Source: a virus (taxonomy: Duplodnaviria > Heunggongvirae > Uroviricota > Caudoviricetes). Taken from it: DNA of 9,750 bases. The stretch is from IMG/VR virus record IMGVR_UViG_2541047860_000008; one strand, written 5' to 3'. Shown here piece by piece: positions 1 through 9,750 of the stretch. Each line of letters starts with the position of its first letter. Positions within the stretch are counted from its first letter, which is position 1. The position numbers and the translations under genes were made by a program. The notes under the pieces are model-generated. The model did no database searches. It had not been told where the DNA came from and was given only the letters and a program-made list of their open reading frames with translations.

Positions 1-975
1 ACGCCAAAGGCGGTAAAGACAGCATATGACCTTGCTAACGGGAAATATACCGCACAGGACGCGACCACAGCGCGAAAAGGCCTTGTCCAGCTCAGCAGCG
101 CCACTAACAGCACGTCAGAAACGCAGGCTGCCACACCAAAAGCCGTGAAGGCTGTATATGACCTTGCCAATGGAAAACAACCTGCCGACGCCACACTGAC
201 CGCACTGGCAGGCCTTGCCACTGCGGCAGACAAACTTCCGTATTTTACGGGGAATGATACAGCCAGCCTGACAACCCTGACTAACGTTGGACGGAATATT
301 CTGGATAAAGCAAGCACACAGGCGGTTATTCAATATCTTGGTCTGAGCGATGCAAGTGGATACGTTGGACGCTGGCTGAATACCCGGGTTTTCACCTCAT
401 CAGGTACGTACACCCCGACGCCAGGAACAAAACGGATCAGGGTCACAATAACTGGCGGCGGTGGCGGAGGGGGCGGCTGCAAGGCTACATCCAATAATGA
501 AACGTTTTTCGGTGCTGGCGGTGGGGCCGGTGGAACAATAATTTCAATAATTACCCCGACACAGAATAGTTATCCGGTCACTATCGGCGCAGGTGGGGCC
601 GGTGGTGTTAGTGCGACGAACGGCACCAGTGGCGGGAATAGCGTATTTGCATCGTTAATTGCTCCTGGTGGCGCAGGTGGCGGGAAAGTGGGAGTTACAA
701 ATACAAACGGCGGTAACGGAGGTGTGCCGAGTACTGGCGATATCCGCATCACTGGTGGAAATGGAGGCGACGGTCAGTCCGGAAATATCAGCGTCAGCGG
801 TGAAGGCGGAACATCGTACTGGGGTGGCGGTGGACGCGCAGGCGCTGGCGGTGGCGTTAGCGGTAAGGCATATGGTTCAGGCGGAGGTGGCGCATACGAT
901 GCCGGTTATAGCGGAACCAGTATGACGGGCGGGAAAGGCGCTGCAGGGATTTGTATTATCGAGGAGTTTGCATAA
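1..975 (+). CDS. H: Tail fibre protein, P2 gpH-like (3' portion; true start lies upstream of the window)
   Basis: Frame 1 is open from nt 1 to the TAA at 973-975, so the ATG at 145 in the ORF track is internal. Translation from nt 1 gives TPKAVKTAYDLANGK...ATTARKGLVQLSSATNSTSE...KQPADATLTALAGLATAADKLPYF...ASLTTLTNVGRNIL, motifs I recognise from the conserved shaft of P2 gpH. The last ~170 aa form a glycine-rich tip. Confidence 0.88.
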   Translation, partial: TPKAVKTAYDLANGKYTAQDATTARKGLVQLSSATNSTSETQAATPKAVKAVYDLANGKQPADATLTALAGLATAADKLPYFTGNDTASLTTLTNVGRNILDKASTQAVIQYLGLSDASGYVGRWLNTRVFTSSGTYTPTPGTKRIRVTITGGGGGGGGCKATSNNETFFGAGGGAGGTIISIITPTQNSYPVTIGAGGAGGVSATNGTSGGNSVFASLIAPGGAGGGKVGVTNTNGGNGGVPSTGDIRITGGNGGDGQSGNISVSGEGGTSYWGGGGRAGAGGGVSGKAYGSGGGGAYDAGYSGTSMTGGKGAAGICIIEEFA

Positions 976-1385
976 TGAATGCGTCATATGCAGTTATTGA
1001 AAATGGGATGGTTGTGAATGTCATTGTCTGGGATGGTGAGGATGAATTCACTGTGCCGGATAATCTGCAGCTCATTAATATTTCTGATATCAGTGAGCAG
1101 CCCGGAATCGGCTGGGCGTATTCAGACGGGGTATTTACTGCGCCGCTCCCTCCGGAACGTTCTCATGATGAACTGGTAGCTGACGCTGAACAGAAAAAAC
1201 AGTCGCTGTTAGACGCAGCAATGGCCAATATCAGCGTGATTCAGTTAAAGCTGCAGGCCGGGCGCAAACTGACGCAAGAGGAAACTACCCGACTTAACGT
1301 TGTGCTGGATTATATCGACGCTGTGACGGCAACAGATACCAGCACCGCACCGGATGTCATCTGGCCTGAACTGCCGGAGGCGTAG
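975..1385 (+). CDS. G: Tail fibre assembly chaperone (Tfa / P2 gpG-like), 136 aa
   Basis: ATG at 975 overlaps the H stop (TAATG) with GAGGAG at 961-966 as RBS. The C-terminus ...TRLNVVLDYIDAVTATDTSTAPDVIWPELPE resembles the conserved C-terminal motif of lambda Tfa / P2 G / Mu U chaperones, and the gene sits immediately 3' of the fibre gene. The ORF-track start at 951 is a TTG without a better RBS and is not preferred. Confidence 0.85.
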   Translation: MNASYAVIENGMVVNVIVWDGEDEFTVPDNLQLINISDISEQPGIGWAYSDGVFTAPLPPERSHDELVADAEQKKQSLLDAAMANISVIQLKLQAGRKLTQEETTRLNVVLDYIDAVTATDTSTAPDVIWPELPEA

Positions 1386-1584
1386 ACCATTCAATATCTG
1401 ACGTACCGGAAGTATCGGACCGCTCCGGTGCGTACAGGTAATCCAGCCACAAATTATATTGCGCCAGTACCTCAGACCTGCCGGGCTATTGCTTAGTGTT
1501 CATGTGTTTATTGGCCTGATTAATCAGTAGCTGTCTTTCTGGTCGTGTGGATCCTGCAAATCCTGAATGGTCGGAAATACCGCA

Positions 1585-1610
1585 GGCGGGCTGATTGCCC
1601 GCCTTTTTTA
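1585..1610 (+). terminator. Rho-independent terminator closing the fibre (H-G) transcription unit
   Basis: GGCGGGC (1585-1591) and GCCCGCC (1597-1603) form a perfect 7-bp GC-rich stem with a 5-nt loop, followed directly by TTTTTTA (1604-1610). The reverse complement lacks a 3' U-tract, so it is + strand only. Confidence 0.7.
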
Positions 1611-3759: not shown

Positions 3760-3911
3760 CGTTTCCGAAAAATCTCTCGGTCGATGACCTGATGGCAGAT
3801 GTGGCAGTGATATTTCACTGGCCGCCATCAGAACTGTATCCCATGAGCCTGACCGAACTCATCACATGGCGCGAAAAGGCGCTCCGGCGAAGCGGAAACA
3901 CGAATGAGTAA
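3484..3911 (+). CDS. E+E': gpE+E' tail assembly chaperone made by programmed -1 ribosomal frameshift (142 aa)
   Basis: The slippery heptamer T TTT TTG (3732-3738) lies in the E zero frame (codons GGT TTT TTG). Shifting -1 after it and reading from 3738 gives VAELGAVTFPKNLSVDDLMADVAVIFHWPPSELYPMSLTELITWREKALRRSGNTNE to a TAA at 3909-3911. The total is 85 + 57 = 142 aa, the length of P2 E+E', and the extension overlaps the start of T by 8 nt, as in P2. Confidence 0.8.
3732..3738 (+). other. -1 frameshift slippery site T TTT TTG for E/E'
   Basis: The heptamer is seen directly and is the same motif reported for the P2 E/E' and analogous lambda G/GT chaperone frameshifts. Confidence 0.8.
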
Positions 3912-6351
3912 CAATGTAAAATTACAGGTATTGCTCAGGGCTGTTGACCAGGCATCCCGCCCGTTTAAATCCATCCGCACAGCGAGCAAGTCGCTGTCGG
4001 GGGATATCCGGGAAACACAAAAATCACTGCGCGAGCTGAACGGTCACGCATCCCGTATTGAGGGATTCCGCAAGACCAGTGCACAGCTCGCCGTGACTGG
4101 TCATGCACTTGAAAAGGCACGGCAGGAGGCCGAAGCCCTTGCCACACAGTTTAAAAACACCGAACGTCCGACCCGTGCTCAGGCGAAAGTCCTGGAATCC
4201 GCAAAGCGTGCGGCGGAGGACTTACAGGCGAAATATAACCGCCTGACAGATTCCGTTAAACGCCAGCAGCGGGAACTGGCCGCTGTGGGAATTAATACCC
4301 GCAATCTTGCACATGATGAGCAGGGACTGAAAAACCGTATCAGTGAAACCACCGCACAGCTTAACCGTCAGCGTGATGCGCTGGTGCGTGTCAGTGCGCA
4401 ACAGGCAAAACTTAACGCAGTAAAACAGCGTTATCAGGCCGGAAAGGAACTGGCCGGAAATATGGCCTCAGTGGGCGCTGCCGGTGTGGGGATTGCGGCG
4501 GCGGGAACGATGGCCGGAGTTAAGCTGCTGATGCCCGGTTATGAGTTTGCGCAGAAAAACTCAGAATTACAGGCTGTGCTCGGAGTGGCAAAAGACTCCA
4601 ACGAAATGGCCGCACTACGCAAACAGGCGCGCCAGCTTGGCGACAATACCGCCGCCTCGGCGGATGATGCGGCCGGTGCACAGATTATCATTGCGAAAGC
4701 CGGTGGGGATGTTGATGCCATTCAGGCGGCAACGCCGGTCACGCTGAACATGGCGCTGGCGAACCGCCGCACGATGGAAGAAAACGCCGCCCTGCTGATG
4801 GGGATGAAATCCGCCTTTCAGCTTTCAAACGATAAGGTCGCTCATATCGGGGATGTTCTCTCCATGACGATGAACAAAACCGCCGCCGATTTTGACGGCA
4901 TGAGCGATGCGCTGACCTATGCCGCACCTGTGGCAAAAAATGCCGGTGTCAGCATTGAAGAAACCGCCGCAATGGTCGGGGCGCTGCATGATGCAAAAAT
5001 CACAGGCTCAATGGCGGGGACGGGAAGCCGTGCCGTGTTAAGCCGCCTGCAGGCACCGACGGGAAAAGCATGGGATGCACTCAAAGAGCTTGGTGTGAAA
5101 ACCTCAGACAGTAAGGGGAATACCCGACCAATATTTACCATTCTGAAAGAAATGCAGGCCAGTTTTGAGAAAAACCGGCTCGGTACTGCCCAGCAGGCTG
5201 AATACATGAAAACTATTTTCGGGGAGGAGGCCAGCTCAGCCGCCGCCGTGCTGATGACTGCCGCCTCAACCGGAAAGCTGGACAAACTGACTGCTGCGTT
5301 TAAAGCCTCAGACGGGAAGACCGCCGAGCTGGTAAATATCATGCAGGATAACCTCGGCGGCGACTTTAAATCGTTTCAGTCAGCGTATCAGGCTGTTGGC
5401 ACTGACCTGTTTGACCAGCAGGAAGGCGCACTGCGTAATCTCACGCAGACGGCCACAAAGTATGTGTTAAAACTCGACGGCTGGATCCAGAAAAACAAAT
5501 CACTGGCGTCAACCATCGGCATCATTGCCGGTGGCGCACTGGCGCTTACTGGCATCATCGGTGCCATTGGTCTTGTAGCCTGGCCGGTTATCACCGGCAT
5601 CAATGCCATCATCGCGGCAGCAGGCGCAATGGGGGCAGTCTTCACGACGGTTGGCAGTGCCGTTATGACGGCCATCGGGGCGATTAGCTGGCCGGTAGTG
5701 GCCGTGGTGGCCGCCATTGTCGCCGGGGCGTTACTTATCCGTAAATACTGGAAGCCTGTCAGCGCATTTTTTGGCGGTGTGGTTGAAGGGCTGAAAGCGG
5801 CATTTGCGCCGGTGGGGGAACTGTTCACGCCACTTAAACCGGTGTTTGACTGGCTGGGTGAAAAGTTACAGGCCGCGTGGCAGTGGTTTAAAAATCTGAT
5901 TGCCCCGGTCAAAGCCACCCAGGACACCCTGAACCGTTGCCGTGACACGGGCGTCATGTTCGGGCAGGCACTGGCTGACGCGTTGATGCTGCCGCTTAAT
6001 GCGTTCAACAAACTGCGCAGTGGTATTGACTGGGTACTGGAAAAACTCGGTGTTATCAACAAAGAGTCAGACACACTTGACCAGACCGCCGCCAGAACTC
6101 AAGCCGCAACGTATGGCAGCAGTGGTTATATTCCGGCGACCAGCTCTTATGCAGGTTATCAGGCTTATCAGCCGGTCACGGCACCGGCTGGCCGCTCTTA
6201 TGTAGACCAGAGTAAAAACGAATATCACATCAGCCTGACGGGTGGTACTGCGCCGGGGACACAGCTCGACCGCCAGTTACAGGATGCGCTCGAAAAATAC
6301 GAGCGGGACAAACGTGCGCGCGCCCGTGCCAGCATGATGCATGACGGTTAA
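3904..6351 (+). CDS. T: Tail tape measure protein (P2 gpT), 815 aa
   Basis: The 815-aa product equals P2 T in length. The N-terminal half is predicted coiled-coil rich in A/Q/R/K/E, with a long hydrophobic Gly/Ala/Ile-rich segment at about aa 535-610 (ASTIGIIAGGALALTGIIGAIGLVAWPVITG...), typical of tape measure proteins. Position after E/E' fits. Confidence 0.95.
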   Translation: MSNNVKLQVLLRAVDQASRPFKSIRTASKSLSGDIRETQKSLRELNGHASRIEGFRKTSAQLAVTGHALEKARQEAEALATQFKNTERPTRAQAKVLESAKRAAEDLQAKYNRLTDSVKRQQRELAAVGINTRNLAHDEQGLKNRISETTAQLNRQRDALVRVSAQQAKLNAVKQRYQAGKELAGNMASVGAAGVGIAAAGTMAGVKLLMPGYEFAQKNSELQAVLGVAKDSNEMAALRKQARQLGDNTAASADDAAGAQIIIAKAGGDVDAIQAATPVTLNMALANRRTMEENAALLMGMKSAFQLSNDKVAHIGDVLSMTMNKTAADFDGMSDALTYAAPVAKNAGVSIEETAAMVGALHDAKITGSMAGTGSRAVLSRLQAPTGKAWDALKELGVKTSDSKGNTRPIFTILKEMQASFEKNRLGTAQQAEYMKTIFGEEASSAAAVLMTAASTGKLDKLTAAFKASDGKTAELVNIMQDNLGGDFKSFQSAYQAVGTDLFDQQEGALRNLTQTATKYVLKLDGWIQKNKSLASTIGIIAGGALALTGIIGAIGLVAWPVITGINAIIAAAGAMGAVFTTVGSAVMTAIGAISWPVVAVVAAIVAGALLIRKYWKPVSAFFGGVVEGLKAAFAPVGELFTPLKPVFDWLGEKLQAAWQWFKNLIAPVKATQDTLNRCRDTGVMFGQALADALMLPLNAFNKLRSGIDWVLEKLGVINKESDTLDQTAARTQAATYGSSGYIPATSSYAGYQAYQPVTAPAGRSYVDQSKNEYHISLTGGTAPGTQLDRQLQDALEKYERDKRARARASMMHDG

Positions 6352-8008: not shown

Positions 8009-8089
8009 TATGTTTTATTTATCTGTTTGTTTTATAAGGATAAATTAACTAAAATGGCACCATCAACAAAACTGGAAGAGGTGCTCGCG

Positions 8090-8308
8090 ATGTTTCATTG
8101 TCCTTTATGCCAGCATGCCGCACATGCGCGTACAAGCCGCTATATCACTGACACGACAAAAGAGCGTTATCACCAGTGTCAGAACGTGAATTGCAGCGCC
8201 ACGTTCATCACTTATGAGTCGGTACAGCGATACATCGTGAAGCCGGGAGAAGTCCACGCCGTAAAACCGCACCCGTTGCCGTCAGGGCAGCAAATTATGT
8301 GGATGTAA
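8090..8308 (+). CDS. ogr: Late gene transcriptional activator Ogr (zinc-finger), 72 aa
   Basis: From the ATG at 8090 the product is MFHCPLCQHAAHARTSRYITDTTKERYHQCQNVNCSATFITYESVQRYIVKPGEVHAVKPHPLPSGQQIMWM, which I recognise as near-identical to P2 Ogr. It carries the C-X2-C-X22-C-X4-C zinc finger (C4, C7, C30, C35), with a GAGGTG RBS about 10 nt upstream. The ORF-track start at 8027 adds 21 residues that are not part of Ogr. Confidence 0.92.
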   Translation: MFHCPLCQHAAHARTSRYITDTTKERYHQCQNVNCSATFITYESVQRYIVKPGEVHAVKPHPLPSGQQIMWM

Positions 8309-8380: not shown

Positions 8381-8902
8381 ATGTCAAAGCCAAAATACCC
8401 TTTTGAAAAGCGCCTTGAAGTCGTGAATCACTACTTCACAACTGATGATGGTTACAGGATCATCTCGGCACGTTTTGGTGTCCCCCGAACCCAGGTCAGG
8501 ACATGGGTTGCCCTCTATGAAAAACATGGAGAAAAAGGTTTAATTCCCAAACCTAAAGGCGTTAGTGCTGATCCAGAGTTGCGTATTAAGGTCGTGAAAG
8601 CTGTGATCGAGCAGCACATGTCCCTTAATCAGGCTGCTGCTCACTTTATGCTTGCTGGTAGTGGTTCTGTAGCCAGGTGGCTGAAGGTCTATGAAGAGCG
8701 CGGAGAAGCTGGTTTACGCGCGCTCAAGATTGGCACCAAAAGAAACATTGCAATATCAGTTGATCCAGAAAAAGCGGCATCAGCATTGGAGCTGTCAAAA
8801 GACCGACGCATTGAGGATCTTGAAAGGCAAGTTCGATTTCTTGAAACGCGGCTTATGTATCTAAAAAAGCTGAAAGCCTTAGCTCATCCCACGAAAAAGT
8901 GA
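8381..8902 (+). CDS. insJ: IS150-like transposase OrfA (InsJ-like, HTH DNA-binding), 173 aa
   Basis: ATG at 8381 just inside the left end. The 173-aa product (MSKPKYPFEKRLEVVNHYFTTDDGYRIISARFGVPRTQVRTWVALYEKHGEKGL...) has helix-turn-helix character and a C-terminal leucine-zipper-like region, typical of IS3-family OrfA. Confidence 0.9.
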   Translation: MSKPKYPFEKRLEVVNHYFTTDDGYRIISARFGVPRTQVRTWVALYEKHGEKGLIPKPKGVSADPELRIKVVKAVIEQHMSLNQAAAHFMLAGSGSVARWLKVYEERGEAGLRALKIGTKRNIAISVDPEKAASALELSKDRRIEDLERQVRFLETRLMYLKKLKALAHPTKK

Positions 8903-8923
8903 AAGTACTCAACGAGCTAAGGC
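8863..8923 (+). other. IS150-type programmed -1 frameshift signal: slippery heptamer plus downstream stem-loop
   Basis: A AAA AAG (8863-8869) lies in the OrfA zero frame (codons CTA AAA AAG). Six nt downstream, GCCTTAGCTC (8876-8885) pairs perfectly with GAGCTAAGGC (8914-8923), giving a 10-bp stem with a 28-nt loop. The -1 frame continues into OrfB. Confidence 0.8.
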
Positions 8924-9750
8924 AGTTTTATCCTCTTGATGAGCTTCTCAGGGCTGCGGAGATACCGCGCAGTACGTTTTATTATCATCTAAAGGCTCTC
9001 AGCAAGCCTGACAAGTATGCGGACGTTAAAAAGCGTATTAGTGAGATTTATCACGAGAATAGAGGCCGATACGGATACCGTAGGGTAACGCTGTCTCTTC
9101 ATCGAGAAGGGAAACAGATTAACCATAAAGCTGTTCAGCGCCTGATGGGAACCCTCTCACTTAAAGCAGCGATTAAGGTCAAGCGATACCGCTCTTACAG
9201 AGGAGAGGTAGGGCAAACCGCCCCTAATGTTCTCCAAAGAGATTTCAAGGCTACGCGGCCAAACGAGAAGTGGGTTACCGATGTTACTGAATTTGCAGTC
9301 AATGGGCGCAAGCTGTATTTGTCTCCAGTAATAGATCTCTTCAACAACGAAGTTATTTCTTACAGCCTTTCGGAAAGACCAGTGATGAACATGGTTGAGA
9401 ATATGCTCGATCAGGCATTCAAAAAGCTTAATCCTCACGAGCATCCTGTTCTGCACTCTGACCAGGGATGGCAGTATCGTATGAGAAGATATCAAAATAT
9501 CCTTAAAGAACATGGTATTAAACAAAGCATGTCCAGAAAAGGCAATTGTCTGGATAATGCTGTGGTGGAGTGTTTCTTTGGAACCTTAAAGTCGGAGTGT
9601 TTTTATCTTGATGAGTTCAGTAATATAAGCGAACTGAAGGATGCTGTTACGGAATATATTGAATACTACAACAGCAGAAGAATTAGCCTGAAATTAAAAG
9701 GTCTGACTCCAATTGAATATCGGAATCAGACCTATATGCCTCGTGTTTAA
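8899..9750 (+). CDS. insK: IS150-like transposase OrfB (InsK-like, DDE/RNase H-fold catalytic domain), 283 aa; expressed mainly as an OrfAB fusion by -1 frameshift
   Basis: The -1 frame relative to OrfA is open from the slip site to the TAA at 9748-9750. The product contains ...KWVTDVTEF...HSDQGWQY...[14 protein letters not shown]..., the D, D and E regions of an IS3-family DDE transposase. The ORF-track start at 8899 is a GTG. Confidence 0.9.

Follow-up and report, generated by a model that had tools for sequence, protein, structure and literature searches.

The tail fiber encoded at the left end of the 9,750-nucleotide (nt) stretch of DNA analyzed here (the window) ends in a member of a known, catalogued, and widespread class of fiber tips, that of Pam3 gp24 and Pfam family Gly_rich_2 (PF21722). 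Judged from sequence comparisons, the tip and the tail fiber assembly chaperone (Tfa) form a cassette that appears to move between phage lineages. The resemblance of the tip to the gp38 adhesins of T-even phages holds at the level of architecture only.

The fiber gene and its surroundings

The window is the tail half of an Escherichia coli P2-like prophage. Gene functions were assigned from open reading frame (ORF) size and order and from the RefSeq annotation of a near-identical locus. In addition to the features listed below, the window contains the sheath, tube, E/E', tape measure, U, and D genes.

1-975, plus strand: 3' end of the fiber gene, which is truncated by the window's left end
1-336, plus strand: 3' part of the P2-type tail fiber gene (gpH-like), encoding a shaft of Phage_fiber_2 repeats (PF03406, E 1e-24)
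337-972, plus strand: tip domain (window aa 113-324) of the Pam3 gp24 type, in which TNF-like beta-strands and a glycine-rich lattice are predicted to interleave
337-375, plus strand: joint motif LGLSDASGYVGRW, the point where unrelated shafts become alignable
453-477, plus strand: tandem DNA repeat, period 9, 2.8 copies, encoding a run of eight glycines (G8)
454-972, plus strand: glycine-rich stretch flagged in the original prediction, 173 aa
975-1385, plus strand: Tfa gene (Caudo_TAP, PF02413, E 5.6e-22)
1357-1467, minus strand: 36-aa remnant of the C terminus of an inverted second tfa gene (tfa'), identified by translation and from how RefSeq annotates the homologous locus
1584-1604, plus strand: GC-rich hairpin that resembles a terminator, with a T-run behind it, downstream of the fiber and Tfa genes
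8027-8308: ogr-like gene
8381-9750, plus strand: IS3-family element, which runs off the right end of the window

Reading from nt 1, frame 1 meets its first stop codon at 973-975. The best match to the window was E. coli MS 124-1 (99.6% over nt 1-1400), whose fiber is a 603-aa "tail fiber protein" encoded downstream of baseplate genes V, W, J, and I. The domain order in this full-length homolog is a Phage_tail_fib N terminus, the shaft repeats, and then Gly_rich_2. As originally predicted for the first ~115 residues, the window opens with P2 shaft sequence; the PF03406 match covers the first 113 aa, which are 75 to 80% identical to the fibers of P2-like and P1-like phages.

The tape-measure gene of the MS 124-1 prophage is interrupted by an IS21-family element (ISEc12), but the tape-measure ORF in the window (3904-6351) is intact; thus, the two prophage copies have decayed differently. 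The IS3-family element, assigned by eye from the translations of its two overlapping ORFs (8381-8902 and 8899-9750), follows the ogr-like gene and lies where one would expect the end of the prophage or the integrase region. The hairpin at 1584-1604, a pattern match from a consensus scan, has an 8-pair stem with 7 GC pairs followed by TTTTTT. A minus-strand ORF of 66 aa (1486-1686) encloses this plus-strand hairpin and matches nothing in Pfam, so it is unlikely to be a gene. Three short ORFs that cross the tip in other frames or on the other strand (330-494, minus; 570-752, minus; 659-925, plus) we read as by-products of GGN codons, which encode, for example, polyproline on the reverse strand.

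Family and fold of the tip

Glycine makes up 35.8% of the residues encoded by nt 454-972 (62 of 173 aa), versus 8.1% in the window's other six long proteins (binomial P = 1.3e-24). All ten glycine runs originally listed for this stretch, which had been estimated at ~170 aa, are present; we counted 11 strict glycine-rich motifs in the tip, plus GTSGG, giving ~12 in six pairs. The tip does not begin at nt 454, as had been proposed. The first residue of the Pfam Gly_rich_2 match is aa 133 (nt 397), the stretch common to unrelated fibers starts at aa ~113 (nt ~337) with LGLSDASGYVGRW, and ~40 aa of beta-strand come before the first glycine run.

The tip matched PF21722 over aa 133-321 with 53.1 bits (gathering score, 24.3), and the full-length homolog and the fiber of jumbo phage Goslar matched the same family. 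In an exhaustive search, 7,650 cluster representatives matched at E ≤ 1e-3, and the match nearly always reached the C-terminal end of the protein. A profile built from 69 diverse relatives matched Pam3 gp24 (7yfw_a) with an E value of 4.6e-22 and aligned to its C-terminal residue. Pam3 gp24 (7YFW/7YPX) was the sole solved family that this profile matched convincingly; the next match, mycobacteriophage Bxb1 gp33, had an E value of 0.05. Neither the tip nor Tfa had a match in NCBIfam, and the tip did not match the Pfam model of the ALK/LTK domain, Gly_rich (PF12810). This class of tip is not covered in the fiber-atlas paper (PMC12143355).

An AlphaFold2 model of the tip, made from the alignment of relatives, had a mean pLDDT of 95.9 and a pTM of 0.90; it is a globular domain in which 200 of 212 residues have a pLDDT of ≥90. 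The model has the TNF-like plus glycine-rich fold of Pam3 gp24. In structure comparisons it scored 23.1 against the Pam3 fiber (7ypx_A; 2.8 Å over 197 residues, 32% identity), 17.8 against Bxb1 gp33 (9d93_Qa; 36% identity), 12.7 against Bxb1 gp29 (9d93_Pa; 22% identity), and 7.2 to 8.8 against the ALK glycine-rich domains (7lir, 7nx3, 7ls0, and 7lrz; about 20% identity). The next best was thiamine diphosphokinase, at 5.0. Foldseek gave the matches in the same order. A search of predicted viral structures gave 267 matching proteins at E ≤ 1e-3, from giant viruses as well as from phages with many different hosts; the Goslar protein ranked first (TM, 0.98). DSSP assigned strand to 5 of the 67 glycines in the model versus 62 of the 145 other residues.

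The tip contains a Cys at window aa 160 (nt 478-480), directly after the G8 run, and another at aa 318 (nt 952-954), in the final beta-strand (GICIIEEF). Neither varies among the P2-type, Mu-type, and Goslar alleles, and neither is conserved in the wider family; the two may form a disulfide.

The original prediction likened the tip to the T2/S16 gp38 polyglycine-II (PGII) sandwich domain. Read as family membership, this would make the tip a gp38 homolog acquired from a T-even phage and joined to a P2 shaft. The architectural part of that claim stands. The tip does alternate conserved glycine-rich motifs with variable segments as gp38 does, Pam3 gp24 superposes locally on gp38 (6F45; 2.7 Å over 52 C-alpha atoms) (PMC9608196), and a resemblance to gp38 domains has been remarked upon (PMC13243192). 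However, this alternation is common to several unrelated PGII-bundle families and is therefore no proof of membership in any one of them, and every test of the family tie was negative. The tip did not match Pfam GP38 (PF05268) or Gp38_N (PF21721) at E ≤ 1, whereas S16 gp38, the positive control, scored 4e-73 and 1.1e-19, respectively. With hhalign, the tip-family profile aligned to S16 gp38 at 1.3% probability over 12 poly-G columns; BLASTP found no match between the tip and gp38, and neither profile nor global fold similarity to 6F45 was detected. The organization also differs: gp38 is a separate monomeric protein whose N-terminal domain attaches to the tip of the gp37 trimer, whereas the tip here is in frame with the shaft with no stop codon between them. 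The likeness is thus one of construction principle, and we regard descent from gp38 as very improbable.

On composition alone, the glycine-rich stretch could be a spacer of no defined fold (low complexity, disordered, or collagen-like), and dozens of 308-aa homologs carry the name "carbohydrate kinase," as if the domain were an enzyme. We give practically no credence to either idea. The confident globular model and the strong homology to a solved fiber tip rule out a spacer; in addition, the glycines are near-invariant and indels almost absent among homologs, and inspection by eye found no Gly-X-Y periodicity in the tip. The "carbohydrate kinases" contain only PF21722 and are encoded in the fiber slot of Mu-type tail modules, which rules out the kinase reading; the name, widespread for this tip-bearing fiber protein, is evidently a misannotation propagated through NCBI/nr. 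The Gly_rich_2 assignment replaces a plausible but wrong family, and the template for modeling or engineering this fiber is Pam3 gp24 with its Tfa, not gp38.

Among 120 close homologs, variation was 0.006 at glycine positions versus 0.09 at others, with the glycines almost invariant and indels nearly absent. Slippage in GGN-repeat DNA had been suggested to drive diversification of the tip, but the tip DNA is not a simple GGN repeat, since its four glycine codons are mixed. Tandem Repeats Finder (TRF) identified a single true array, the 25 nt that encode G8, and length variation was confined to this run, in 3 to 4 of the 120 homologs. These patterns give no support to slippage as the driver and suggest that the tip diversifies through substitutions in its non-glycine segments and swaps of the entire cassette.

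The tip and Tfa on other shafts

The gene that follows the fiber encodes a Caudo_TAP chaperone, as originally predicted. The fiber stop codon and the Tfa ATG overlap as TAATG (973-977), which suggests that translation of the two is coupled. The N-terminal half of Tfa (about nt 975-1180) accompanies the tip; in its C-terminal part (about 1200-1385), Tfa consists of a generic Caudo_TAP module common to many phages. Only nt 1200-1400 (~60 C-terminal aa) matched the Tfa proteins of phages with other tips, e.g., HK106, SfIV, and P2. This fits a division into a tip-specific N-terminal and a generic C-terminal domain, as described for the Pam3 chaperone gp25 (PMC9608196). Searched alone and as a 3-sequence profile, Tfa matched no solved structure, chaperones included; it had no detectable sequence match to Pam3 gp25, and no direct match to gp25 or to Mu Tfa was found. 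Caudo_TAP family membership and gene order are thus the basis for the analogy to gp25.

The tip and Tfa also occur in three other backgrounds.

Mu-type prophages: 308-aa fiber with baseplate genes gp45-48 and an O-antigen acyltransferase downstream; tip 89% identical, Tfa (138 aa) 90%
Jumbo phage vB_EcoM_Goslar: 1,324-aa fiber Goslar_00090 and Tfa Goslar_00089; tip 73% identical, Tfa 65%
~90-kb plasmids: fiber genes beside a recombinase remnant; tip 96% identical (DNA, one plasmid checked), Tfa present, unaligned

In all aligned cases, similarity starts at the same joint (LGL-D-SGYVGRW), at aa ~113 (nt ~337). The idea of a horizontally swapped module is thereby upheld: the tip and Tfa are found on unrelated shafts with a common joint, and a Tfa-type gene lies immediately downstream of the tip and covaries with it in three backgrounds. 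The Goslar and Mu-type fibers have the same tip allele family, joint motif, and coinherited Tfa as the window fiber but differ from it in shaft and tail machine, Goslar being a chimallivirus and the Mu-type fiber a short one.

Among 5,426 complete E. coli genomes, 262 contain the tip with the N-terminal half of Tfa and 157 contain the full shaft-tip-Tfa arrangement of the window. The ~90-kb E. coli plasmids, which are probably P1-type phage-plasmids, account for 77 places in the collection. In plasmid NZ_CP185941.1 (24064-34867), the tip and Tfa end a fiber gene of >1,400 codons near a recombinase remnant and lysis genes; the fiber and Tfa are annotated there as pseudogenes. When the tip was searched against deposited phages by tblastn, Goslar alone was found, with an E value of 3e-4 despite 73% identity. 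The low-complexity filter is our explanation for this weak value, and the search therefore does not show that other phages lack the tip; a distant blastn search found no further phage with the tip.

The tfa' remnant, which overlaps the end of tfa, is the relic of an invertible fiber-tip switch that has decayed in this prophage. The related P2-like phage NC_041848 has an intact invertible cassette between its fiber and sheath genes, consisting of Tfa, an inverted Tfa', an alternative tip, and a DNA invertase. Its fiber has Phage_tail_fib and a Collar domain (PF07484), whereas fibers of the window type have Phage_tail_fib, Phage_fiber_2, and Gly_rich_2 and lack the Collar-domain tip. Because the window keeps only the 36-aa remnant, its fiber is fixed on the glycine-rich tip.

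Proposed function and comparison with known systems

We think it probable that nt 337-972 encode the receptor-binding tip of a trimeric P2-type tail fiber, inherited with Tfa as one cassette and most likely directed at a sugar of the lipopolysaccharide (LPS) core. The ~12 glycine-rich motifs would pack in six pairs as extended polyglycine-II-type strands, forming a hydrogen-bonded lattice. This rigid lattice would present the non-glycine segments as a beta-sandwich and as loops that vary between alleles, with one copy of the tip on each of the three fiber chains. Tfa, presumably coupled to the fiber gene in translation, would hold the tip in a clamp through its tip-specific N-terminal domain, and its conserved C-terminal part would drive trimerization, by analogy with Pam3 gp25. 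The tip and Tfa appear to have been recombined together onto different shafts at LGL-D-SGYVGRW.

The choice of ligand follows from two homologs. In a Klebsiella phage homolog of gp24, mutations that restore infection of an LPS-mutant host map to the glycine-rich domain, and DNA ejection triggered by LPS is blocked by the protein in purified form (PMC12671077). Goslar depends on the LPS outer-core sugar GluII in genome-wide screens (supplement of 10.64898/2026.04.02.716166); the main text of that preprint says nothing of the Goslar fiber. By analogy with these homologs, LPS is the likely ligand. The Klebsiella homologs are distant, and the LPS dependence of Goslar could stem from some other receptor-binding protein that this phage may carry. 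A tip with the same fold that binds an outer membrane protein instead is an unlikely alternative; in its favor, gp38 adhesins, which have a similar lattice, bind porins (10.64898/2026.04.02.716166). The concentration of allelic variation in the non-glycine segments fits either class of ligand, but the sole functional data on homologs point to LPS.

With an LPS core sugar as the favored ligand, we tentatively extend the explanation, at somewhat less than even odds, to a self-contained adhesin cassette that is portable and probably recognizes the LPS outer core, and that has been swapped via one conserved joint among at least four otherwise unrelated myovirus backgrounds in E. coli (P2-like phages, Mu-type tails, P1-sized phage-plasmids, and the nucleus-forming jumbo phage Goslar) and was fixed here when the tip switch decayed. 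If so, LGL-D-SGYVGRW would offer a ready-made place at which to splice when P2-type phages or tailocins are to be retargeted. One tip-chaperone cassette serves several E. coli phage lineages, a jumbo phage included, and offers both a defined splice point and a receptor hypothesis (the LPS outer core); otherwise, the locus is an ordinary example of fiber-tip mosaicism.

The Pam3, Bxb1, gp38, and ALK domains have been grouped as glycine-rich PPII helical bundles (PMC13243192). Pam3 gp24 has 12 glycine-rich motifs in four layers and a TNF-like domain (PMC9608196), about the same motif number as the tip described here. It is a minimal 280-aa fiber with an alpha-helical stem from a phage of a cyanobacterium, whereas the window domain sits on a long P2-type Phage_fiber_2 shaft and belongs to a fiber of E. 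coli. The Bxb1 domains, the gp33 "tail wing brush" and a subdomain of the gp29 tail spike (PDB 9D93), occupy other virion positions, on a siphovirus tail tip. The TNF-like plus glycine-rich domain of ALK/LTK (PDB 7LRZ, 7NX1, and others) belongs to a metazoan receptor tyrosine kinase and binds a protein cytokine. Compared with Pam3-type tips, gp38 has 10 motifs in three layers and a beta-helix domain (PMC9608196), and it caps its trimer as a monomer, whereas each of the three chains of the window fiber, as in Pam3, would end in its own domain. What gp38 (PDB 6F45; PF05268) and the window tip have in common is a set of glycine-rich motifs with interspersed variable segments, a lattice of the polyglycine-II type (predicted for the tip), and a place at the fiber's distal end, where gp38 sets host range and the tip would do so.
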